IMG/VR virus record: IMGVR_UViG_3300047562_004403
Span: 1-64,000 of that record
Reading direction: 5' to 3' (one strand)
DNA from: a virus
DNA: 64,000 nt
Under the pieces are notes generated by a model. The model saw only the letters and a list, made by a program, of their open reading frames with translations. It was not told where the DNA came from and searched no databases. Numbering within the stretch: the stretch's first letter is position 1; each line of letters starts with the position of its first letter. This document shows positions 3,413-62,609 of the stretch, piece by piece. A program made the translations under genes and the position numbers.

Positions 3413-3420
3413 GTTTAAAG
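3413..3420 (+). promoter_or_regulatory. putative phage late promoter GTTTAAAG
   Basis: Exact motif upstream of the + strand virion operon that starts at 3465; it recurs before many structural genes. Confidence 0.55.
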
Positions 3421-6595: not shown

Positions 6596-9500
6596 ATGGC
6601 AGCAAAAGTTAGCGTCGGAAAAACGGCCCCAGTACCTCTAGGTCAACAATCTGCAGCAAATTCGCTCCCGGTGGTATTCGCCGAGGATCAGGCTCCAATT
6701 CCTGTAGAGGAACAAAATAAAATTCAATCAGAAGTGGCTTTAAGCCTTCTTGGTATTCCTCGTTCTGAAGTAGCGCTTGGTATTTTTGCCGACGTCAATA
6801 CATATGACGTTAACCCATCCGAGTGGGCACAATTTCCGTTAAGTAACACTCCCTTGAGTGCCGGGGAAGGCATCTCATCAGGCGTAGAACACATTCCTGA
6901 CGAGGCGGGTGCTAGGTTAGTTGCTCCTGACGTTTCCACCACTGTGTTGACATCTAAGAGATTTTTCAGATATCAGCCTGGACGCGTTTCGGCTTCTACC
7001 ATGGGTGTGAAGATGAACGTCACTAAAGATCCAGAAACAGACCCAACATTAACAGCAGCTGATAGAGCTAGGATGAAAGGAGCCCCATCCATTAAAAAAT
7101 GGGGCATTTTTGATAAGTTTGATGGTTATTATTTTGAGATTGTTAATGGAGGTAAAAAGAATGATTTTCGTTGCGTTCGTCGCACTCAGGCTATAATTCC
7201 TTCAGAGCCTTCGGGATATTCCGGCGCATTAAGTTGGTTTGCAAATGGCGGATCGGAAGATTATAATCCAGAATTTAATACCTCTACTAACTTTGGCGTA
7301 GCGGGTGTTGACCCAGTAATCATCAGAGACGGTTTAGTGTACACCGCGGCTGCGATTTATGACCCCTCCTTAGTATATAAGCCCGGTGATGTTGCTGCTA
7401 TTGATTCTGCAACTGACCCCTCTGGGCGTCTTAAGGATTTTACTCCGGACCCGGGTTATGCTGTAAGACTTGCAACCTATAATGGTTCTGCATTTACAGA
7501 GTTAATGGCCAACCGTAAATTCCAGTTCCCATTCGATCAATCTACAACAGTTGAACTTGATGATGATAAAGATTCGCTCATAGATGGCTATATTCGTCTT
7601 GACGCTCACTGTAACTTCTACCAGATCATCTCGAATCTGAACCGCAAGGCCGACTACACTGGGTTTCCGTCGGCAAAAGACTCTCTTGCCTCTTCGGAGT
7701 GGGGTGTGGACGGATCTTCTATTACATCCTATGACTCCAATATTGTTGCTAACACCTGGGACACCGCTCCTTCCACATCTAACAGCGATAAAAAGGTATG
7801 GCACCTTATGGTGAATACTCAGGGCACCAACTCCAGTTACAGAATTACCGACGGCCAGCATAGTGCCGCTCCTGGCATCCCATCAGCAGTTAAAGCGCGC
7901 TCTGTTACCAACGGTAACGTAACCCTGAAAGAGTGGTTCAATATCTGTGTTCCTGAACCTTATCGTAAGGTGTATGAATGGAGGCCTGTAAGAGCAATGT
8001 TCTCTGGCGACAAACTCGACGGAGAACAAACTGATCTTAGATGGAGTGATGTCAATACTGCTGCTGAGGATAATACGGCTTCGGCGGGTGGGGATCTTAT
8101 AAATAGACCCGGTGAAAAGATCAGAGATGCTAATAATGAAGTAATTCAAATACAATCTGCTTATAGCATTGACTTCACAAAGGTAACTATGTGGAAGATC
8201 GAATTCTCCTGGTACGGTGCTGTTGGTGCTATCTTCCTCTGTTACGTTCCTGTTGGTAATAATGAAGCTCGCTGGGTGCGCGTTCATCACATTCGCGCCT
8301 CAAACCAGCACGCTGTAGCCTCTCTAGGTAACGCCACCCTACCTATCACCTATCTCACCCACGGAGGAGTAGATAGCGGACTTGAAGATACTGATATTGG
8401 TAACACTCTTGTTAAGTACGGTGCCTCTTATTATATTGATGGCGGAGACAAGGGTACTGTTCGGCTTCTTTCTAAAGCTTCAGATTTTCAGCGCGAAGTA
8501 CCCAGAGGATTTTATGATTTTGCCGCTGGTAGTGGATGGGCTCTAGGATCATCATCAAGAGCCAGACTTGAATACTCTGTAACAACCCATCCTAATCTTT
8601 CTGGAGAAGTTGCCGTGGGACTTATGGGCGCTTATTTGGAAGGCGATTCTACAGCAAAAGTTAAGTGGATTACTCAAGATGGTGATAATATTACTCTCCA
8701 TCTAACCACTCCTTCTCTTCCGGTTAGTAATGCTTCCCCTGTTCGACTAATTATCCCTAGAGCTCAACGCTCTCTACTCACCGTCCGTGCAAAAGATTTC
8801 ATCGTTAACCGAGACGGTAAATCAGTTAGAAATCGTTTACAGATTTATCCAATTAAATACGGAGCGGGTATTACTGGCGGAACTTCAGGTGAACTTATAA
8901 GCTTGAGAGCAATTAAAAATCCACTATTTATTGTTACTAATACAGACACTAACCTAGGATCCTCTGTTTCTTACACCGGAGTAGGAAACGTACAAACTAA
9001 TTCCGATATTCCCTACGTTAATACGGGTAATTCAACTCTTCCGGTAGAAGTACAGTTTGATTCTGGTACACCATTTACCGGGAATAATCAATACAGATAT
9101 GGTTACTTTTTAGGCACCACTAATTCTAGCGTAGCTGAAACTGGTTGGACCGCAGGAACAAGTGATCCCAATCTATATGAACCAATTCTTGGTAAACTTT
9201 ATAGGGAGAATGGAATCTTAAAATTTGAGAAATTTTTCTCCTATCCTGATCCTATTTATATTGTTGGATTGTTTATTCCTGAGAGACATCTTCTAGTTAA
9301 TTCAGAAGGTGTTCCGGATGAATTTAAACTTCTTAATGCCTCAGGAGTTAGAGACACCGAAGACTCTACGGATCAAACAAAATGGGATAAACTTAAAGAA
9401 GACGGACTAGCAAATTGGGAAGATATTACGCGTCTTTCTGGTGTTCAAATTGCTCAGGATTTTCAACTTACTCCTGTTCCTGATACGGGAATTGAAATTC

Positions 9501-25037: not shown

Positions 25038-25766
25038 ATGGCTACCATTCTTAACCAAGGTCTTTACCGTACTCTTGGAATTCAGTTTGAATATAAAATT
25101 AAACTTCAGGAGTTCTTAAGTGAAGCTCATACAGACGCTCTTGTTTCTTCATATAGTAGTGGGTCAAATACACCGGCTAATCGTATTGCTCTTTATAACT
25201 CATTTGTTAAAGCCGGTCCGACCATGGGATTTGAGGCAAAAAAAGCTGCCTACGGTCTCCTCGAGTATGTTTGCCAAGCATTAGTAGCAAATGCTGATGT
25301 CCCTGCTGCCGATAAAACAGCCATTAACGATTTGCTTGTTAACGTAACTCGTTATGTCGGCATGGAAGGCGAGGAAGATTTTCACTTCATGGTTGCAACG
25401 TTCGATCTTGCTGAAGTCATCTCCGGGATCGTAGGTGAGGTTGTTCCGGCTCCTCAGGCTCCTGTGGGTGCCATTGATACCCTAACCATTGCTGATGGAG
25501 GTAGTGGTTATACTACTGACGGAGCGACTGACACCGGCGCCGTAGCAATCTTGATCGAATCCACAGAAACTAACAATCCGGCTGGATATACTGCTGCTGA
25601 AGGAACTGCAACTCTTACGGGTGGCGAAGTTACTGGCATTTCTGTTTCTGATGGTGGAGTTGGCTTCAAGGTTGGTCAAATTGTTACTATTACAGTTGAC
25701 AATGTTACTTCGCCCGGCGCTACTCAAGAAACTGAGGCTCTTGCCGAAATCACTGCTGTTTCCTAA
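25038..25766 (+). CDS. putative virion structural protein
   Basis: C-terminal TIADGGSGY / SVSDGGVGFKVG repeats typical of phage structural proteins. Confidence 0.6.
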   Translation: MATILNQGLYRTLGIQFEYKIKLQEFLSEAHTDALVSSYSSGSNTPANRIALYNSFVKAGPTMGFEAKKAAYGLLEYVCQALVANADVPAADKTAINDLLVNVTRYVGMEGEEDFHFMVATFDLAEVISGIVGEVVPAPQAPVGAIDTLTIADGGSGYTTDGATDTGAVAILIESTETNNPAGYTAAEGTATLTGGEVTGISVSDGGVGFKVGQIVTITVDNVTSPGATQETEALAEITAVS

Positions 25767-52592: not shown

Positions 52593-54506
52593 ATGTCCGA
52601 ACCCCAAGTCCCCTCGTGGATGTCAAAAGAAGCCATCGATACCCTATCGAGAGGATATCTATATCAGGGTGAGACGCCCAGAGGTATGTATGAAAGGGTG
52701 GCTAATCAAGCCGCTAAATTACTCAATTACCCCGAGCTCTCAGAAGATATTTTTGAAGTACTATGGAGGGGATTTCTTGGCTTAGCAACTCCCGTGGCGA
52801 GTAACTTTGGCACTTCGAGGGGGCTCCCCATCAGTTGCTACTCTAATCACGTCTCTGATTCCGTACCCTCTATCTACTCCCACCTGAAGGAGTCAGCAGC
52901 TCTCTCCCAGCATGGTGGCGGAGTGGGTACCTACTTTGGAGACATTCGTCCCGCTGGGGCTCCTATCTCATCAGGGGGAAAGAGTACAGGTATAGTGCCC
53001 TGGATGCGGCAATATGATCAATGCGCGGCCGTTGTCTCCCAGGGTGGAGTAAGACGCGGTAGTTTCGCTCTATACCTACCCATTGACCATCCTGATTTGC
53101 CTGAAGTACTTCGTGCTAAAGACCATTCACAAGGCGATCCACGCGACTTTATTGATAGCAACGTGGCCGTAACAGTAACTGATGAGTGGGTAAAAGAATT
53201 GCTCGCGGGCGATAGAGACAAACAAAAACTCTTTGGCGAGGTACTTAAAGCCCGCCTTGTGTCAGGGTCTCCTTACATCATCTTTATTGACAATGCCAAC
53301 AAGGCCAATCCAGATTGCTACACACAACGTGGCTTAAGTGTTAAACTATCAAATTTGTGTAGCGAAATTTTTCTCCATACTGATGAAAACCATACTTTTG
53401 TATGTGTTTTATCCTCGCTAAATCTTTCTCGATGGGATGAATGGAAAAATTGGACCGCTCCTGTAACAGGCAAAACTGTCCCTGAGTTGGCTGTGTATCT
53501 CCTTGACGCGGTTGTAGAAGAGTTTTGCCATAAGGCCGAACGTCTTACTTCCTTGGGTAGGGCTGTAAGATTCGCTCGCAAATCTAGGGCTTTAGGCCTG
53601 GGTACTATGGGTCTTCATGCTCTTTACCAATCTAAAAATTTGCCCTTCTCATCCGAAGGAGCTCGCGATCTAAACATTGAAGTACATAAATTTATCAAAG
53701 AGAAAGCGCAAAAGGCTTCTCGTGAGATGGCTATTGCCTATGGCGAGCCAGAATGGTGCCAAGGCACCGGCCTCCGTCATACCCATCTCATGGCAATTGC
53801 CCCAACCAAATCTAATTCCGTGATCTGTGGTGCCGGGAGCGAGGGAATTGAGCCTATTGACGCCAACTATTACGTAGCCAAGCAAGCTAAGGGGACATTT
53901 GTTCGTAAGAATAAATACCTAGTAGAACACTTGGAGCGCATCGGACGTAACACCGAAGAGACCTGGGAATCTATTCTAGAGTTTCGTGGATCAGTGCAAC
54001 ATCTAGATTTCCTTGATGCCCACTCTAAAGAGGTATTTAAAACTGCACGTGAAATTGACCAATTTGAGTTGATCCGTCAAGCCTCAGATCGACAAAAGTA
54101 TGTTTGCCAAGGTCAATCTATCAATCTCTTTGTCGATCCCGAATCTACACCTGAGTATCTTTTCAAGCTTCATTTAAGTGCCTGGAAAGGAGGACTTAAA
54201 TCTCTCTATTATTTGAAGAGTTCATCTTTGCTTATTAAGAAAAAACCATCAGGGCAACAAAAAATTGCCAAAATTATCACCAAACAAGAATGCCCTTATT
54301 GCTCCATGGCTAAGTCACTTCTCCGTAGTCAGGGTTGGACAATTAACGAAGTAGATCGGATGAATGTTCCCGATTCTGAATGGCATTGGAAAACCGTTCC
54401 GCAGATTTGGCTCAATGGTCAGCATGTTGGTGGTTATACCGACTTGGCAGAAAAACTCGGTCATAGGGAAAAATCTTATGGTGAATGTGTGGCCTGTGAG
54501 GGTTAA
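52593..54506 (+). CDS. nrdA: ribonucleotide reductase class I alpha subunit, without ATP cone, with an internal glutaredoxin domain
   Basis: LPISCY, GGGVG, NLCSEI, MAIAPT, KSLYY; then CPYC...TVPQIW...VGGYTDL; terminal CVACEG. Confidence 0.92.
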   Translation: MSEPQVPSWMSKEAIDTLSRGYLYQGETPRGMYERVANQAAKLLNYPELSEDIFEVLWRGFLGLATPVASNFGTSRGLPISCYSNHVSDSVPSIYSHLKESAALSQHGGGVGTYFGDIRPAGAPISSGGKSTGIVPWMRQYDQCAAVVSQGGVRRGSFALYLPIDHPDLPEVLRAKDHSQGDPRDFIDSNVAVTVTDEWVKELLAGDRDKQKLFGEVLKARLVSGSPYIIFIDNANKANPDCYTQRGLSVKLSNLCSEIFLHTDENHTFVCVLSSLNLSRWDEWKNWTAPVTGKTVPELAVYLLDAVVEEFCHKAERLTSLGRAVRFARKSRALGLGTMGLHALYQSKNLPFSSEGARDLNIEVHKFIKEKAQKASREMAIAYGEPEWCQGTGLRHTHLMAIAPTKSNSVICGAGSEGIEPIDANYYVAKQAKGTFVRKNKYLVEHLERIGRNTEETWESILEFRGSVQHLDFLDAHSKEVFKTAREIDQFELIRQASDRQKYVCQGQSINLFVDPESTPEYLFKLHLSAWKGGLKSLYYLKSSSLLIKKKPSGQQKIAKIITKQECPYCSMAKSLLRSQGWTINEVDRMNVPDSEWHWKTVPQIWLNGQHVGGYTDLAEKLGHREKSYGECVACEG

Positions 54507-54509
54507 TTT

Positions 54510-55076
54510 ATGAAAACTTATACCCATCATAAGATTCCACAAAGCAGAGGAGGGGGCGATGAAGATTGGAATTTAATACAACTTAATGCTTATGAGCATG
54601 CATATGAACATGCTTTGGATTTCGTTCTTTTTGATTCTTCTCCATCATTTGATTGTAGACAACCAGGTTGGAAATTACTTCCAAAGGATCTACAAAAAGC
54701 CGTAAAAGCTGAGATTTCTAATCGCATGAAAGGAAACACATACGCTAAAGGACATGGAGAATCAAAGCGTGGAAATAAAAATGGAATGTGGGGAAAAAGA
54801 GGAGCACTTCATCCTGGTTATGGTAGAGTAAGACCAGAAGAAGAACGTAAAAGGATTTCTAAAGCTAATAAAGGAAAATCAAAACCCCCAGAACACCGTC
54901 AAAAGATTTCAAAAGCTCTTTTAGGAAAAAAGAAGAGTGAAGAGTTTAAAATTAAAAGATCCAGAGACGCAACTGGTCGATTTTGGGTGACAGATCCTGA
55001 TGGATGTGGTAGAATGTTAAAAAGAGGAACTCCTCTACCTCCTGGATACGTTCTCGGAAGACCTAAATTGTATTAA
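54510..55076 (+). CDS. free-standing HNH homing endonuclease with NUMOD3 repeats
   Basis: HHKIPQSRGGGDEDWNLIQL...EH..EH; EERKRISKANKGK and EHRQKISKALLGK repeats. Confidence 0.8.
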   Translation: MKTYTHHKIPQSRGGGDEDWNLIQLNAYEHAYEHALDFVLFDSSPSFDCRQPGWKLLPKDLQKAVKAEISNRMKGNTYAKGHGESKRGNKNGMWGKRGALHPGYGRVRPEEERKRISKANKGKSKPPEHRQKISKALLGKKKSEEFKIKRSRDATGRFWVTDPDGCGRMLKRGTPLPPGYVLGRPKLY

Positions 55077-55088
55077 TTTTTTTTAATC

Positions 55089-55571
55089 ATGGATCTTGTT
55101 AAGTTTATCAATGAGGGATTTAATGCCCAACAAAAGTATGCAAATAAAGTAGGAGAACTTGGCCCTAATGATTTGGCTGAGATTGATAAAATGGTAGCCC
55201 TAGGACTTCCCCAGCATGACGCTCTTCCTTTTCGTTATGCCAAAATGATTGAACATTTCGGCCACCTTATAGAGGAATCTATTGAGGCCCGGGTGTATGT
55301 CCCGCGCCGGAGTTGGAAGAATGGTGAGCGTAGTTTCATGGATAGCGATGAACTTCGCCGAGAGTTTATTGCTGAAATGTACGATATTCTTTTATTTTTT
55401 CGTGCTATTCTGGCGTATGCCGGGGTCAGTGGTGAGGAGTTTGCTCAGATCGCCGCTGAAAAACAGGCCTATAATCAAGTAAGACCAGATCATAACGTAA
55501 ATGGAACTGCCTCAGTTATTGCCAATCCATCAGAAGAACTCCAAGGTTTTTGTGAATCTGCTTCGTTTTAA
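55089..55571 (+). CDS. all-alpha dNTP pyrophosphohydrolase (dimeric dUTPase / dCTPase gp56-like / MazG superfamily)
   Basis: EESIEA...SWK...EFIAEMYDILLF...EK..YN..R motif set. Confidence 0.7.
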   Translation: MDLVKFINEGFNAQQKYANKVGELGPNDLAEIDKMVALGLPQHDALPFRYAKMIEHFGHLIEESIEARVYVPRRSWKNGERSFMDSDELRREFIAEMYDILLFFRAILAYAGVSGEEFAQIAAEKQAYNQVRPDHNVNGTASVIANPSEELQGFCESASF

Positions 55572-55582
55572 TTGAATTTATA

Positions 55583-55762
55583 ATGCTTATTCCTCGTCAG
55601 CGACTTATTCAGAGCATAGATCTATGTTTTTGTGATGCATGCGATGGTAGAGGATTTCTTATTCTTGAAAAAAATTCGCCGGATGGGCGTATATTACCCA
55701 ATGAAATAAAGGAGTGTGAAGTTTGCGATGGTACCGGAAAACATAAAAACAATCAGACCTAA
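55583..55762 (+). CDS. 59-aa zinc-finger protein with two DnaJ-type CxxCxGxG motifs
   Basis: Manual translation: MLIPRQRLIQSIDLCFCDACDGRGFLILEKNSPDGRILPNEIKECEVCDGTGKHKNNQT. Confidence 0.65.
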   Translation: MLIPRQRLIQSIDLCFCDACDGRGFLILEKNSPDGRILPNEIKECEVCDGTGKHKNNQT

Positions 55763-56213
55763 TACACAAGTATTAGTTCTTAACGCATCCTATGAACCTC
55801 TTCACATCACAAGCTGGAAAAGAGCTATTATTCTACTTTTAAAGGAAAAAGCTGCTATAATCTCAGCAAAAGTTATCCGACTCGTGGAATATATAAGAAT
55901 TCCTTATATTAAAATCAACTCTGTTAAGCCATCGCGCAATTTAATTTATAAAAGAGACGGGCACAAATGTCAATATTGTGGTTCGACAAGGCGTTTAACA
56001 ATTGATCATATAATTCCAAAAAGTCGCGGAGGACAAGATACTTGGGACAATATGGTCGTAGCATGTTCCTCATGCAATATAAAAAAGGGAGATACATTGC
56101 TCGAGCAGACAGGAATGAGATTAATTAAAAAACCTTTTACCCCTACCAATAAATTTCTTTTGAATCTTATTGATTCAGAGTCCGCGGAATGGACTCAATA
56201 TGCTATAGGTTAA
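55716..56213 (+). CDS. HNH endonuclease (McrA/HNH_5-like, cyanobacterial type)
   Basis: VLVLNASYEPL, RDGHKCQYCG, LTIDHIIPKSRGG, VACSSCNIKKG. Confidence 0.88.
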   Translation: MKFAMVPENIKTIRPNTQVLVLNASYEPLHITSWKRAIILLLKEKAAIISAKVIRLVEYIRIPYIKINSVKPSRNLIYKRDGHKCQYCGSTRRLTIDHIIPKSRGGQDTWDNMVVACSSCNIKKGDTLLEQTGMRLIKKPFTPTNKFLLNLIDSESAEWTQYAIG

Positions 56214-57357: not shown

Positions 57358-58572
57358 TTATAACGCCCAGACTGGTTCCATAGGGGCTTTAGTGGCCGTG
57401 TTATTTTGGCGAAGAATCTTATAACTCCCATCTTGCTTGGTCTCCGGATCAATCCATTCACGATTGCCCTCTAAAGCTTCAATGATCTCACCCACCCAAT
57501 CTGCAGCAGTTGTGCATGGGACGTTCTGACAGATGACATTACTGTGCTTAGTTGGAATATGGACTTTGGTGGCGTAGTCCGGTGGAAAGCCCATCAGTGC
57601 TAGGCCTTCAGCCACTGTAAGCCAACGATCCTCATAGGGATGCATAAGCATCGGAAGACTCTTCCACATAAGCGCCTGTGTGCGTACCCATGCAAGTTTC
57701 ATGCTTCCGTCCATGATATTTTTTCCGGCACGTTTTTTCTCTAAAGTATAATTAAGCCAACGATTTATCCTCTCATCCCTTACGACTCTGCAGGCCTCCT
57801 CAAGCCAACCGGAGTCATAGATCACATTCCATACACTTACCATGCGCTTAGATGCTACATGGGCGAGAATGTCTTGTTTTGTAGAGCCGGTGTATTTGGA
57901 TTCAATAAATTGCCATAAAGGATCGGAGGAAGGAATGGGTTTATTACTCACGGATTCCGATGGGGCAAAATCACCTTTCTTGAGGAACTGATGGAAAGGC
58001 GTATATGGTTTTTTAATCGGCTTGAGTACGGGGACTTTGCTACCTTGCCACAAGAAAAAGAAACTCCGTGTCCGTTCTTGCGGGATTCCATGGTTAAGAG
58101 ACGTGGTTTTCACCAGACTCATAGTATAACCATGGCGCTGAGCAAGATTATTGATTCGCTCAGCAAATTCTTCCCCCATTTTAGAATATAGAGCCGGAGC
58201 ATTCTCTACAATCATGGCCTTAGGCTTAATTTTGGACATGGCAAACTCAGACCCATTGAGCATGTGCATATTGCTTGGAGCGCTACATCCTCGGGGATTA
58301 TTTACTTTGTCTCCGGACGTGGTATTTCCCATGCTTAATCCTGCGCAGGGCGGAAGACAAGTTACAATATCTACATGCTGAGTAGGATATTGCCCTTCAT
58401 CCAACTCGTAATATGGAACTTTGTCAAAGTACTTCAGGCAATACTGATCATTGGCTCCAAAAGTACTCCCCCAAGATGCAATCCACTCAGGATTTCTATT
58501 TAATGCTCTAGTGGCTCCAAGAACGCTACCCCCAACAAGAGGGATGACATGGCCATGGGTATATTTTGACAT
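57358..58572 (-). CDS. DNA cytosine-C5 methyltransferase-like protein with atypical SAM-binding motifs
   Basis: Motif IV PPCAGLS, VI VENAP, VIII GIPQERTRSFF, IX RWLTVAEGLALMGFP; motif I reads IPLVGG and motif X reads CQNVP. Confidence 0.8.
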   Translation of the reverse strand: MSKYTHGHVIPLVGGSVLGATRALNRNPEWIASWGSTFGANDQYCLKYFDKVPYYELDEGQYPTQHVDIVTCLPPCAGLSMGNTTSGDKVNNPRGCSAPSNMHMLNGSEFAMSKIKPKAMIVENAPALYSKMGEEFAERINNLAQRHGYTMSLVKTTSLNHGIPQERTRSFFFLWQGSKVPVLKPIKKPYTPFHQFLKKGDFAPSESVSNKPIPSSDPLWQFIESKYTGSTKQDILAHVASKRMVSVWNVIYDSGWLEEACRVVRDERINRWLNYTLEKKRAGKNIMDGSMKLAWVRTQALMWKSLPMLMHPYEDRWLTVAEGLALMGFPPDYATKVHIPTKHSNVICQNVPCTTAADWVGEIIEALEGNREWIDPETKQDGSYKILRQNNTATKAPMEPVWAL

Positions 58573-58594
58573 GGTATAATTACTTTATGGAGGT

Positions 58595-58632
58595 CTTTAG
58601 ACTGATTTGATTTAAATTGTTTGGGTTTAAAG
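58595..58632. promoter_or_regulatory. divergent late-type promoters (GTCTAAAG minus for the MTase; GTTTAAAG plus for ORF 58656)
   Basis: Motifs at 58602-58595 and 58625-58632, each ~22-23 nt from its ATG. Confidence 0.5.
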
Positions 58633-58655: not shown

Positions 58656-61001
58656 ATGCTCGGGGATTATGCCCCTCAGGATTGGGGAATCGCAGATAAA
58701 ACTGAATGGGTAGCGGAACAGCCACTTGAGGGCGAGGCTAGGATGCCTGCTCTTGAGGGCGTGGATGTTGTTGGGTTTTGTGAAGTAATAAGTTTTGCTG
58801 CTGGGCAATTTATACCTGACAATGTAAAGAAAATGGCTGCGGGACAACCTAACTACACGTTTAGAAATCCTCAAACAGGGCAGACTTATATCAAGAGAAA
58901 TGGGCACTGGACGGTTAGTCAACAAGATGGAAAGAAAATCCAAGAAAAGATGAGCAATGCGATAGATCGTGGTAATATACCAAAAGAACATCTAGACGAA
59001 CCAAGGTCTCGATCAGAAGTTAAACCTAAACTTAAATCTAAACCCAAACAAGAAACGCAACCCGAACCAGCACCTGAACCAAAACCCAAAGTCGAACAAA
59101 AACCAGAGATTCAAGAAAAAGCTCAACCTGATCCGCTCCAGGAGAAAAGCTCTGCTTCCAACATTTACGCAATAGATCAGTCAACTACAGAATCCATTTC
59201 CAGAGTGAAGAGCTTAAGCTCCGCACCGGCCACTGATCCTACTTTCAAATCAGGACAGATCGCTTTCAAGCAAATCGAAGACCACTACTCTAAAGTTTCT
59301 CCTTACGAAGAGGCCCTAACTAAGCTCTCCGGTAAAGGCGGATTCGGGAATAAGATTATGTCCGCGCTTTTAAAGGACTTTGATCTTGATCAACAAGTTG
59401 AGATTAAAAAGAAAACTTTTGTTACTCCAAGAAAGATCCTTGAAGACGCGGGCCTTGACGTGAATAACCCAGAAAAAGTTCAAAAGTTTCGTTCTTTATT
59501 GCAGTCCTTAAATTCTCACCTAGGTCCTGACGGCGGCTGGACAACCTCTCCGACTCACTCTCTGTCGGAAGGCCTTGGATTTTTTGAAGCAGAGCACGTC
59601 CAGCATAGATCTGATATGGCGGATCCAAAAACGTTACCTTCGGATCTAAGAGTTAAGGCTTTTTCAACTGGAGCGGACTTTCAGGATTCTTCAGCTTGGG
59701 CGGATATGACTCCTCAAGAGATCGATTTAGTATTCCATCTTCTACCCACAGCAGCGCAAACGTCATTGAAGAAGAGTGGATCTCCTGATAAGTACTATGA
59801 TCCTTTGTCGCCTGGAGGGCAAAGTAATAACCCTACAGATCTTCGCGGAAGACTAGCTTTGTTTATGTGGGCAAAACAAGGTGGTCGTGATGGTTACTCT
59901 CTGTCAGGAATGCAAAGATCGCCAGGCGAGTTTCAGGTGGAACACGTACAGGATCTATCGTCCGGTGGTAAAGATACCGCGTCTAACTTTGTGATGCTGC
60001 TAAAGAGAGTGAATGAACCACGTTCCAGTCTTCCACTACCTACATTTGTAGAGCAGGCGTCAAGAAGAGCCAAAGAAGTAGAGAAAAACCTGGCTGATCC
60101 AGGTGGAGAGTTTTTACAAACAAGACTTAAAGCTCTGCAGCAAAGAGGAGTGCATGACTCCCTTAGCGACAGTTCTAATCCTTTGCTTGGATCCATTTCT
60201 AACCTGTCTAGTCCAGAATTTTTTAAACTCGTGCAAAAAAATTCGGAGTCTCTTCCAGAAAATCTAAGACCATCCATAGATGAGTTTAATAAGTTCGCGG
60301 ATTCAGTCAATTCTATAACTGATCCAAGTACTAAGATTTCGGATCTAAGCGTTGCTCAAATGAACCAACTTCTTTCCTCACTGGAATCATTTGGCGCTAA
60401 CCCCGACAAAGTTAAAGAGTATCTTGGCAGGTCAGTGTTCAACAACTACCATGATGGTAATAGAATCCAATCTATAAAATCCGATGGAACTATAGTTGCT
60501 GGACGCGGGGGGACTAATTCCGCTCCGGCACCGCTACAGTTTCTTGAGAATAGACTTATGGGCAGACCAGAATCTGTATCTCCAGAGGAGTATGGTTCTG
60601 GGCTAGCGTTAGTATCCAATGCTCATGATAATATAAGAAACGCGAGAAATAAGCTCATCGAGAATGGCGGAGGAGATTTTTCGCAATTCCACGAGGCTTT
60701 AGGGGATTCTTTAATGACAATATGCGGATTAGACGAAGGGTCTCCTGAGTGGATACGTAATAGAAAGATTAGTACCAGAGACCTCTCTAGAACTATCGAA
60801 AATTACGTAGGTACTTTTCCACCAAATAGACCTGTTGGAGGCCAGCTCGCGAGCTTATACGTGTCCGCTGCTCTTGACTACCACGGGTTCAGCAAAGAAC
60901 AACTTGATAATCCCGACGCAATTAAGAAAAAAGCTGATAGAGTAAAAGTCTTAAAAATCAAATCCACCTTGGACCAAATAACTCAAGGTACTAAATCATG
61001 A
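58656..61001 (+). CDS. large protein with a central HNH-like motif, candidate virion/ejected protein
   Basis: FQVEHVQDLSSGGKDTASNFVMLLKRVN; Pro/Lys/Glu-rich linker; late-type promoter. Confidence 0.55.
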   Translation: MLGDYAPQDWGIADKTEWVAEQPLEGEARMPALEGVDVVGFCEVISFAAGQFIPDNVKKMAAGQPNYTFRNPQTGQTYIKRNGHWTVSQQDGKKIQEKMSNAIDRGNIPKEHLDEPRSRSEVKPKLKSKPKQETQPEPAPEPKPKVEQKPEIQEKAQPDPLQEKSSASNIYAIDQSTTESISRVKSLSSAPATDPTFKSGQIAFKQIEDHYSKVSPYEEALTKLSGKGGFGNKIMSALLKDFDLDQQVEIKKKTFVTPRKILEDAGLDVNNPEKVQKFRSLLQSLNSHLGPDGGWTTSPTHSLSEGLGFFEAEHVQHRSDMADPKTLPSDLRVKAFSTGADFQDSSAWADMTPQEIDLVFHLLPTAAQTSLKKSGSPDKYYDPLSPGGQSNNPTDLRGRLALFMWAKQGGRDGYSLSGMQRSPGEFQVEHVQDLSSGGKDTASNFVMLLKRVNEPRSSLPLPTFVEQASRRAKEVEKNLADPGGEFLQTRLKALQQRGVHDSLSDSSNPLLGSISNLSSPEFFKLVQKNSESLPENLRPSIDEFNKFADSVNSITDPSTKISDLSVAQMNQLLSSLESFGANPDKVKEYLGRSVFNNYHDGNRIQSIKSDGTIVAGRGGTNSAPAPLQFLENRLMGRPESVSPEEYGSGLALVSNAHDNIRNARNKLIENGGGDFSQFHEALGDSLMTICGLDEGSPEWIRNRKISTRDLSRTIENYVGTFPPNRPVGGQLASLYVSAALDYHGFSKEQLDNPDAIKKKADRVKVLKIKSTLDQITQGTKS

Positions 61002-61763: not shown

Positions 61764-62609
61764 ATGCCACAACCCTGTCTATCCTTCGACCTTCAGTATA
61801 TTAAAATTGCTCGTGAAATCCTTGATAATGGCATCGAGATTGTAGGTCGTAATAATCTCCGTTATAAACAAATTTTCGGACAAACAATCAAAGTTGATTT
61901 ACGAGATGGTTTCCCCGCGCTCACTCTTCGCAAAATGCCCACGCGTAACTTATTTCGCGAGTTTATGTGGGATATCTCGGGAGACTATAGGGTAAGCAAT
62001 CTCGGACCAGCAAAACATTTTTGGGACTTTCTCGCCGATGCCGAAGGCCGACTCGCAGGATCCTATGGACGTTCTTGGCGCTCCTGGCCCAAAGTCTGCC
62101 CAGAAGAAAGCATGGAATGGGAGAATTTTCGCAAAGAACCATTTGACCAGCTTAAGTGGATTTGGGAACAACTTCGCACTAATCCAACTAATCGCCAACT
62201 TGTACTTCAGACCGTAAACCCGGCATATGAGTCTTTGCATTGCCCAGGTTGTCATCCCTGCCTCGTGTTTAGTTCCGATGGCGCTCATCTCGATCTTCTT
62301 GTGACCGCGAGGAGCAATGACATGGCCACAGGAGTGCCCCTAGATATGTTTCGCTATGGCCTTCTCACCACCAAGATGGCTCAGGACGCTAATCTGATTC
62401 CGCGATTTGTGATGTTTGCCTCTGCCAATAACCACGTCTACTCTCAAAACGAACTTGCGATTAAGTCGATCATCACAAACTCCCCTATGACACCTTGTGA
62501 TGTTTGGATCAATAACGAAAAACCCATCTTCGATCTCGATCCAGAAACCGACTTCGAACTCATCGATTACACTTCCCATCCTGCCAAGAAAATGGATCTT
62601 GCCAACTAA
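61764..62609 (+). CDS. thymidylate synthase (ThyA)-fold enzyme with Asp at the Asn177 position; predicted dCMP C5-(hydroxy)methyltransferase
   Basis: DLRDGFPALT, REFMW, YGRSWR, DQL, PGCH catalytic Cys, RSNDMATGVPLD, NHVY, Y.SHP C-terminus. Confidence 0.8.
   Translation: MPQPCLSFDLQYIKIAREILDNGIEIVGRNNLRYKQIFGQTIKVDLRDGFPALTLRKMPTRNLFREFMWDISGDYRVSNLGPAKHFWDFLADAEGRLAGSYGRSWRSWPKVCPEESMEWENFRKEPFDQLKWIWEQLRTNPTNRQLVLQTVNPAYESLHCPGCHPCLVFSSDGAHLDLLVTARSNDMATGVPLDMFRYGLLTTKMAQDANLIPRFVMFASANNHVYSQNELAIKSIITNSPMTPCDVWINNEKPIFDLDPETDFELIDYTSHPAKKMDLAN

Follow-up and report, generated by a model that had tools for sequence, protein, structure and literature searches.

The DNA analysed here, the 64,000-nt window formed by positions 1 to 64,000 of the IMG/VR virus record IMGVR_UViG_3300047562_004403, is part of a 79.8-kb contig, about 49% complete, that represents a fragment of a TIM5-like cyanophage. 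Its minus strand encodes a protein that resembles C5-cytosine DNA methyltransferases (C5-MTases; hereafter the MTase-like protein), and the span under study consists of this open reading frame (ORF) and the 30 nt upstream of it (Table 1). With the 'DNA methyase' of the cyanophages S-TIM54, S-TIM5, S-TIM61 and S-TIM66 (Aurunvirus) the protein shares 69% identity, and these phages have the same order of genes around it. A previous, sequence-only reading of the window had described a C5-MTase with preserved catalytic motifs, remodelled S-adenosylmethionine (SAM, or AdoMet) binding motifs and late expression, encoded near a ThyA homologue that modifies deoxycytidine monophosphate (dCMP). The catalytic motifs of the protein are indeed those of C5-MTases; its altered cofactor-side motifs recur throughout a large family of phage proteins, and the genes of this family lie almost exclusively among phage genes for the pre-modification and glycosylation of cytosine, with Asp-type ThyA homologues as their commonest neighbours.

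Table 1. Features of the window, with positions counted from its first nucleotide
Feature	Position	Strand	Details
MTase-like coding sequence	57358..58572	-	404 aa, ATG start, ORF call; family signature IPL[IV]GG / S[YW] / [PC]PCAGLS / ENAP / QxRxR / QNVP
Altered motif I, VIPLVGG (residues 9-15)	58528..58548	-	I10 for Phe and L12 for the first Gly of FxGxGG; profile alignment and sequence
S33-W34, end of beta2	58471..58476	-	Ser in place of the motif II Glu (HhaI E40), aromatic kept; register from model secondary structure and HhaI topology
L57-D58, end of beta3	58399..58404	-	Motif III-like Asp kept; model and family counts
Motif IV, PPCAGLS (residues 74-80)	58333..58353	-	Catalytic Cys76 present; Ala77 for the usual Gln (HhaI Q82)
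Motif VI, ENAP (residues 123-126)	58195..58206	-	Includes Glu123; read from sequence
Motif VIII, QERTR (residues 165-169)	58066..58080	-	Q165, R167, R169; read from sequence
Motif IX, RWLTVAEGLALMGFPPD (residues 316-332)	57577..57627	-	RWLT..E..LMGFP at 316-330; sequence and alignment
Altered motif X, CQNVP (residues 348-352)	57517..57531	-	Gln349 at the HhaI N304 site (Arg350 in CmoX)
Upstream element GTCTAAAG	58595..58602	-	22 nt before the ATG of the MTase-like gene; one base off the GTTTAAAG motif
Upstream motif GTTTAAAG (inside GGGTTTAAAGAC)	58625..58632	+	Upstream of the divergent gene
Divergent 781-aa protein gene	58656..61001	+	
ThyA homologue	61764..62609	+	281 aa, full length; PF00303 E 5.6e-51; Asp194 at the N177 position, RSND (D169 equivalent) kept, Cys160 at the L143 position
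Ribonucleotide reductase large subunit	52593..54506	+	Class I, with C-terminal glutaredoxin domain (PF02867 and PF00462)
HNH endonuclease gene	54510..55076	+	
Possible MazG-like nucleotide pyrophosphohydrolase	55089..55571	+	Candidate dCTPase; weak match to PHROG 12184 (E 1.4e-4), no Pfam match
HNH endonuclease gene	55716..56213	+	

Fold and cofactor pocket of the MTase-like protein

The MTase-like protein matches the Pfam profile of C-5 cytosine DNA methylases, PF00145, above threshold (E 6.6e-16; 59.1 bits versus a gathering cutoff of 22) and is assigned to 'DNA methyltransferase' (phrog_116) in PHROGs. Because only profile positions 52-315 of PF00145 align, the N-terminal SAM-loop region with motifs I and II goes unrecognised by Pfam. 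The score against the NCBIfam dcm model TIGR00675 (43.2 bits) lies below the cutoff of 100.65, as do those of the relatives P0125 and P0144. Structure prediction, which the sequence-only reading had proposed, was carried out with AlphaFold2 from 20 relatives and gave a model with a predicted local distance difference test (pLDDT) value of 91.5 and a predicted template modelling score (pTM) of 0.90. In VIA-align comparisons this model reaches Z scores of 25.4 with M.HaeIII and 25.1 with M.HhaI (273-301 residues aligned), its residues 1-370 superpose onto residues 7-325 of HhaI, and Foldseek gives E values of 1e-14 to 1e-15. Its best structural matches are DNA-bound structures of DNA methyltransferases, with both domains included in the alignment. 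From the model, the gene product is predicted to be a complete two-domain protein of the C5-MTase fold.

Direct reading of the sequence confirms that the PC, ENA, QxRxR and motif IX elements are kept. On the cofactor side, comparison with M.HhaI gives the replacements Phe18 to Ile10, Gly20 to Leu12 (behind an invariant Pro11), Glu40 to Ser33, Gln82 to Ala77 and Gly-Asn304 to Cys348-Gln349. Alignment of the family with a single Dcm sequence by hhalign reached motifs IV-VIII only, and motif I was placed with a small canonical profile in global mode; against Dcm-type MTases this pairs I10 with Phe, L12 with the first Gly and G14-G15 with the GG of FxGxGG. The motif II register of the same global alignment looked wrong and was not used. 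Motif II was located with the model, in which beta1 covers residues 6-9, a helix starts at residue 15 and beta2 (31-33) is followed by Trp34; because this order equals the HhaI arrangement, in which we take Glu40-Trp41 to end beta2, Ser33 falls at the site of the motif II Glu. Likewise, the family profile aligns ICQNVPV with IGNAVPV of M.HaeIII, so Gln349 occupies the HhaI Asn304 site. The rebuilt motif I, the missing motif II acid and the CQNVP form of motif X, all three seen in the sequence-only reading, are thus borne out by profile alignment, the AlphaFold2 model, the HaeIII alignment and the family counts given below. The replacement of the motif IV Gln by Ala77 is a change beyond those listed there.

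In C5-MTases, the most conserved SAM contacts include the motif II Glu and, in motif I, the first Gly. As judged from the alignments, the replaced residues correspond to those that hold the methionine/methyl end of AdoMet in M.HhaI, and the adenine-side contacts (the aromatic residue at 34 and Asp58) appear to persist. In M.HhaI, the transferable group packs next to Gln82, Tyr254 and Asn304, and the Q82A substitution lowers methylation about 16-fold and raises the transfer of larger groups (PMC3526304). The natural enzyme CmoX switches its cofactor at the motif X position: its Arg350, at the N304 site, binds the carboxyl of carboxy-SAM (Cx-SAM) (PMC12783734).

A protein with these features could be an ordinary SAM-dependent orphan DNA 5-methylcytosine (5mC) methyltransferase with a diverged pocket, which would methylate leftover cytosines or a short motif and so complete protection against restriction. 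The PF00145 score, the whole-length match to HhaI and HaeIII and the full set of catalytic motifs all speak for such an enzyme, as does the retention of Asp58 and the aromatic residue 34. It would have to work, however, with substitutions for the motif II Glu and the leading Gly of motif I in essentially every family member and with Ala at the very site where the same substitution impairs HhaI, and it scores under the dcm cutoff. We regard an ordinary methylase as a serious contender whose chances nevertheless fall short of even.

Distribution, conservation and genomic neighbourhoods of the family

A word-indexed search yielded 311 homologues of the MTase-like protein, and a full HMMER scan of 1.84 billion representatives yielded 728, with 200 (clusters at 50% identity) at E<=1e-30; nearly all of the HMMER homologues are about 400 aa long and align from residue about 5. 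At least 586 IMG/VR stretches carry the family. Of the isolated phages, the TIM5-like cyanophages and Pseudoalteromonas phage XG4 alone encode it, Bacillus phage G has a distant relative, and the ESM Atlas clusters nearest to the family are 100% viral. In a scan of 185,579 prokaryote species (one genome each; a single peptide search pattern), 14 family loci were found, all of them on contigs of metagenome-assembled genomes with phage replication or modification neighbours. The family is apparently phage-only so far, its members lying on phage-like contigs.

A restriction-modification context was considered and rejected, as all 14 loci from prokaryote bins look like phage contigs. No restriction gene was recognised among the clustered neighbours of these 14 loci, and neither a restriction enzyme nor a Vsr partner came to light. 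The sole restriction-enzyme-like neighbour encountered adjoined a canonical MTase (L099) that belongs to another family; a related-locus search with L099 as query returned no match. Some family members carry additional domains. The metagenomic protein P0200 (598 aa) has a long K/E-rich C-terminal extension that ends in a CXXC zinc finger (PF02008, 29.7 bits), and others are fused to unannotated extensions of up to 1462 aa (P0188).

The IPL[IV]GG proteins, which the sequence-only reading had suggested collecting as a subfamily, turn out to share their signature family-wide. Residues were counted in 173 representatives with identity down to about 27-30%. In motif I, P11 is present in 162, L12 in 164, G14 in 166 and G15 in 164. 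At the end of beta2, position 33 is Ser in 148, Thr in 10 and Asp in 2, and position 34 is aromatic in 155; N41 is found in 159, position 42 is Asp in 132 and Glu in 30, and position 58 is Asp in 131 and Glu in 14. The catalytic C76 of motif IV is kept in 170, followed by Ala (132) or Ser (33) at position 77. E123 (171), Q165 (170), R167 (172) and R169 (172) are similarly constant, as are Q349 (167) and N350 (163) of motif X. By these counts, the pocket changes appear to be near-invariant traits of the family and not the decay of one gene.

Genomic neighbourhoods were compared by calling and clustering ORFs within +/-10 kb of the MTase-like gene in 94 related loci and our own contig (95 loci, many of them on contigs that are fragments). 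The commonest neighbour is a ThyA homologue (48 of 95 loci), followed by a 419-aa glycosyltransferase-like gene that overlaps the start of the MTase gene (46), dCMP deaminase (33) and an NAD-dependent sugar epimerase/dehydratase that abuts the MTase-like gene (33). Further neighbours encode cytidylyl- and nucleotidyl-transferases, HAD phosphatase, GT2, DNA alpha-glucosyltransferase (PF11440), a protein that carries the helical domain of 5-hmdU DNA kinase (PF18723), an inositol-1-phosphate-synthase-like protein, and MazG/PRA-PH, dATP/dGTP-diphosphohydrolase-like and dUTPase/DCD-like proteins, together with the replication proteins clamp, clamp loader, PolB, UvsX/RecA and DnaB.

According to published residue rules for ThyA homologues, Asp at position 177 indicates specificity for dCMP, hydroxymethylation is accompanied by an acidic residue at L143, and D169N is typical of 5-hydroxy-dCMP synthases (PMC13326640). 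Asp occupies the E. coli N177 position in all 47 alignable ThyA neighbours, which also keep RSND (the D169 equivalent), and on application of these rules most of them are predicted to be gp42-like dCMP hydroxymethylases. The ThyA homologue of the window has Asp194 at the same position, in agreement with the type assigned to it earlier, which marks it as putatively dCMP-specific. Its combination of Asp194, Cys160 and the D169 equivalent differs from that of both T4 gp42-type hydroxymethylases and the 5-hydroxy-dCMP synthases of PMC13326640; because of the Cys at the L143 position, the product of the TIM5-clade enzyme (5-hydroxymethyl-dCMP or 5-methyl-dCMP) is less certain.

Two further contigs have an Asp-type ThyA far from the MTase-like gene. 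The only Asn-type ThyA among those checked for this residue is distant from the MTase-like gene, on a contig that also holds an Asp-type copy, and contig G013 has a second, canonical-looking ThyA. The complete 360-kb jumbo phage genome G002 (L150, L152) encodes a canonical Asn-type ThyA, a gp42-like Asp-type homologue and the MTase-like gene.

The linkage persists through rearrangement. At 50% identity, 10 of the 17 MTase clusters have an Asp-type ThyA within 10 kb and 15 have any modification or sugar gene; at 60% identity the corresponding numbers are 18 and 27 of 30. Depending on the architecture, ThyA is located upstream, downstream or on the opposite strand, so the linkage is not one inherited synteny block. 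In a weak control, none of 42 Dcm-type viral loci had a ThyA homologue nearby. The association with Asp-type ThyA that the sequence-only reading had proposed to look for is therefore present: 48 of 95 loci, with every alignable copy of the Asp type, against 0 of 42 control loci.

The pocket signature is identical in cassettes of the kinase, glycosyltransferase, alpha-glucosyltransferase and TIM5 types, which fits a step common to all these pathways. The phage S-TIM54 encodes a T4-type DNA alpha-glucosyltransferase (PF11440 AGT, at 6614-7336), and TIM5-like DNA therefore probably carries bases of the 5-hydroxymethylcytosine (5hmC) type. No glycosyltransferase or other tailoring enzyme was found on our own 79.8-kb contig, which is 49% complete.

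Several cassettes (those of L011, L012, L047, L051, L061, L069, L080 and others) combine a gp42-like Asp-type ThyA, dCMP deaminase and a PF18723 5-hmdU-DNA-kinase-like protein with a PNK-like protein, an inositol-1-phosphate-synthase-like protein and a 354-aa protein of phrog_13881; in phrog_17781, a phrog_13881-type part is fused to a kinase-like part. These cassettes look like a kinase-based hypermodification route that acts on cytosine instead of thymine. C5 methylases are unmentioned in the MetaGPA paper.

In other phages the MTase-like gene overlaps, start to stop, with upstream glycosyltransferase-like or epimerase genes. Such tight coupling, together with the loss of the SAM-side motifs, might suggest that no group transfer is left and that the protein acts either as a regulator or as an accessory that flips bases or binds DNA, perhaps to hand cytosines over to the glycosyltransferases encoded nearby. 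However, the T4 glucosyltransferases flip the base on their own, and the (near-)invariance of Cys76, Glu123, Gln165, Arg167 and Arg169 would be unexpected if covalent catalysis were dispensable, which makes such a role improbable. A substrate other than DNA, either RNA, as for Dnmt2, or a free nucleotide, is more improbable still. Dnmt2 structures do match the model (VIA-align Z about 19-20), but they rank behind the DNA-bound DNA MTases, Dnmt2 retains canonical SAM motifs, and the family occurs among genes of DNA replication and DNA modification, with the CXXC DNA-binding finger of P0200 pointing the same way.

Neighbouring genes and upstream elements in the window

In the window, the MTase-like gene is the sole opposite-strand gene of its block, an arrangement kept across the TIM5 clade. 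Its neighbours are an NrdA-glutaredoxin fusion, two HNH endonuclease genes, the weak MazG-like pyrophosphohydrolase, the divergent 781-aa protein and, 3.2 kb away, the ThyA homologue. The HNH genes flank the MazG-like gene within a nucleotide-metabolism block and are probably homing-type insertions. The 781-aa protein has a low-complexity, P/E/K-rich N-terminal part and an HNH-like stretch at residues ~422-481 (weak IscB-HNH match, E 0.0036). Its homologues (561-781 aa) occur in TIM5-like contigs, always between the MTase-like gene and ThyA, and a conserved GGTTTAAAGAC is found upstream of its gene.

Late expression of the MTase-like gene had been suggested from the element that precedes it. 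The exact 8-mer GTCTAAAG occurs 3 times in the window versus 2.2 expected and so shows no enrichment, unlike the word GTTTAAAG[AT], which is enriched upstream of genes. The GTTTAAA core of GTTTAAAG is found 9 times on our contig versus 0.87 expected. Sites of the form GTTTAAAG[AT] (for example at window positions 3413, 6561, 24272(-), 24982, 49500 and 58625) are placed about 25-35 nt before start codons, including those of structural genes; they precede a virion protein at 6596, an operon of head-closure-like and tape-measure genes at 25038 and the divergent gene at 58656. We consider GTTTAAAG[AT] a candidate phage-specific, possibly late, promoter of TIM5-like cyanophages. The MTase-like gene itself has an element one base away from this structural-gene motif; S-TIM54 and 7 of 8 examined TIM5-like contigs have this element at the same site, in the conserved form CAGTCTAA[AG]G. 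No sigma-70-like promoter was recognised between 57000 and 58800. Support for late expression is thus weak: the 8-mer originally pointed to is unenriched, and the opposite-strand layout and the conserved element would fit a separate, possibly late, phage-specific transcription of the gene but do not fix its timing.

Proposed role and comparison with known systems

A phage that combines an Asp-type ThyA with dNTP pyrophosphatases and glycosyltransferases should exchange its cytosine already at the level of nucleotides, so that a normal C5 methylase would be left almost without substrate. This scarcity and the rebuilt pocket together make a non-canonical role plausible, and we favour, with a probability of roughly 0.45, the view that the MTase-like enzyme carries out non-canonical C5 chemistry within a ThyA-dependent cytosine hypermodification pathway. 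The substrate, cofactor, chemistry and timing that we infer are as follows. The enzyme would act on phage DNA after replication, at a step common to the ThyA-dependent, pre-replicative 5-hydroxymethyl-type hypermodification pathways. It would flip out a cytosine residue, Cys76 would attack C6 of the flipped base and Glu123 would act on N3/N4, with Arg167 and Arg169 kept; C5 chemistry other than plain methyl transfer from SAM would then follow. In one version, cytosines missed by nucleotide-level substitution would be converted with a donor other than ordinary AdoMet. In the other, the 5-CH2OH group of 5hmC would be activated so that it can be exchanged or removed, a reaction that C5-MTases perform in vitro in the absence of SAM; this SAM-free chemistry on 5hmC, to which the sequence-only reading had appealed, is documented and reviewed in PMC8829811.

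More broadly, and somewhat short of even odds, the family may represent a natural enzyme of the C5-MTase fold that has dispensed with ordinary SAM methyl transfer and serves as a universal post-replicative step in many aquatic phages, either by using a new donor on residual cytosine or by activating 5hmC, or a phosphorylated form of it, for substitution.

Several points weigh against non-canonical chemistry. The Asp at the motif III position and the aromatic residue at the Trp41 position are kept, as a binder of adenosine (SAM) needs, and the pocket may simply bind SAM differently; Pfam, moreover, still assigns the protein to PF00145. The genomic linkage would also be accounted for by a SAM-dependent methylase of low specificity whose task is to fill in residual cytosines. 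Given its Cys at the L143 position, the TIM5-clade ThyA may itself methylate dCMP, and SAM-dependent 5mC fill-in would then be coherent. The CXXC finger of P0200 belongs to a domain type that binds unmodified CpG and thus favours unmodified cytosine over 5hmC as the substrate. Phage C5-MTases in neighbourhoods with glycosyltransferase, epimerase and polymerase genes are, in addition, proven methylases with TET partners (PMC8256090). In contrast to those systems, Tet_JBP (PF12851) gave no match above cutoff in 59 family-bearing records, a search in which the model lacked a positive control (the control genomes are TET-free) and many contigs are fragments; G013 contains one 13-bit match to a generic 2OG-Fe(II) oxygenase, and a scan of 401 alphaproteobacterial genomes found no TET. 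An ordinary methylase also fits poorly with the regular company of dNTP pyrophosphatases and Asp-type ThyA, whose action should spare little cytosine from modification.

Phage DNA hypermodification is currently described as following two routes, a pre-replicative one through ThyA homologues and a post-replicative one through C5-MTases and TET, and their possible coexistence has been called an open question (bioRxiv 10.1101/2023.12.21.572611). Here, a large and apparently phage-only family of the C5-MTase fold is tied specifically to the pre-replicative route, with its cofactor pocket rebuilt exactly at positions known to decide the transferred group. Use of another donor, or action on 5hmC, would amount to a new DNA-modifying activity that parallels CmoX in nature and might serve as a tool for labelling 5hmC or cytosine; activation of 5hmC would further be a natural instance of a reaction so far known only as an in-vitro side activity of methyltransferases. 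If the enzyme is a plain SAM methylase, SAM use would require neither the motif I Gly nor the motif II Glu, and phages would back up nucleotide-level substitution with fill-in at the DNA level.

The canonical C5-MTases M.HhaI, M.HaeIII and E. coli Dcm (PF00145) share with the family the two-domain fold, the PC of motif IV, EN(V/A) of motif VI, QxRxR of motif VIII and motif IX. The family differs from them in having [IV]PL[IV]GG for FxGxGG, Ser for the motif II Glu, Ala or Ser for the motif IV Gln and xQN for the GN of motif X, in its scores under the dcm cutoff, and in its location on phage contigs next to Asp-type ThyA. Similar sites have been changed by design in M.HhaI Q82A/Y254S/N304A and M.MpeI N374K, where substitution of the Gln in motif IV and the Asn in motif X alters the choice of transferred group (PMC3526304, PMC8829811). 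The family likewise has a small residue at the Q82 site and a changed residue at the N304 site; however, the engineered enzymes keep motifs I and II, and the family has Gln rather than Ala or Lys at the N304 site.

The phage C5-MTases coupled to TET/5mYOX methylate GpC with SAM, after which TET makes 5hmC following replication (PMC8256090; bioRxiv 10.1101/2023.12.21.572611). Like the family described here, they are phage-specific, cluster with glycosyltransferases, epimerases, CTP transferases and DNA polymerase, and feed cytosine hypermodification. In contrast to them, the family has the pre-replicative Asp-type ThyA as its partner, a distinction drawn from published descriptions and gene context.

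With the T4-type 5hmC pathway (gp42, the gp56 dCTPase and alpha/beta-glucosyltransferases), the family neighbourhoods share a gp42-like Asp-type ThyA, dCMP deaminase, dNTP pyrophosphatases and a DNA alpha-glucosyltransferase. The 5hmC pathway of T-even phages is not known to include a gene of the C5-MTase fold.

CmoX, the C5-carboxymethyltransferase of Synechococcus phage S-B43 (PDB 8YF3), is likewise a phage homologue of C5-MTases and a top structural match of our model (Foldseek rank 4, Z 23.9). Unlike the MTase-like protein, which has Gln349 and LPPC and is without the corresponding Glu and Phe, CmoX possesses the normal SAM contacts F25, E47, F48 and D69 together with Arg350 and SPPC. Membership in the CmoX group was rejected on account of Gln rather than Arg at position 349, LPPC rather than SPPC, and the failure to find CmoA (TIGR00740) in five records, namely our contig (49% complete), S-TIM54 and three complete family-bearing genomes, in a search whose E. 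coli control was positive. CmoX uses a cofactor other than SAM by a switch at the HhaI-N304 position, and its product is a handle for hypermodification (PMC12783734). By analogy, it provides a precedent for a cofactor switch in phage homologues of C5-MTases.

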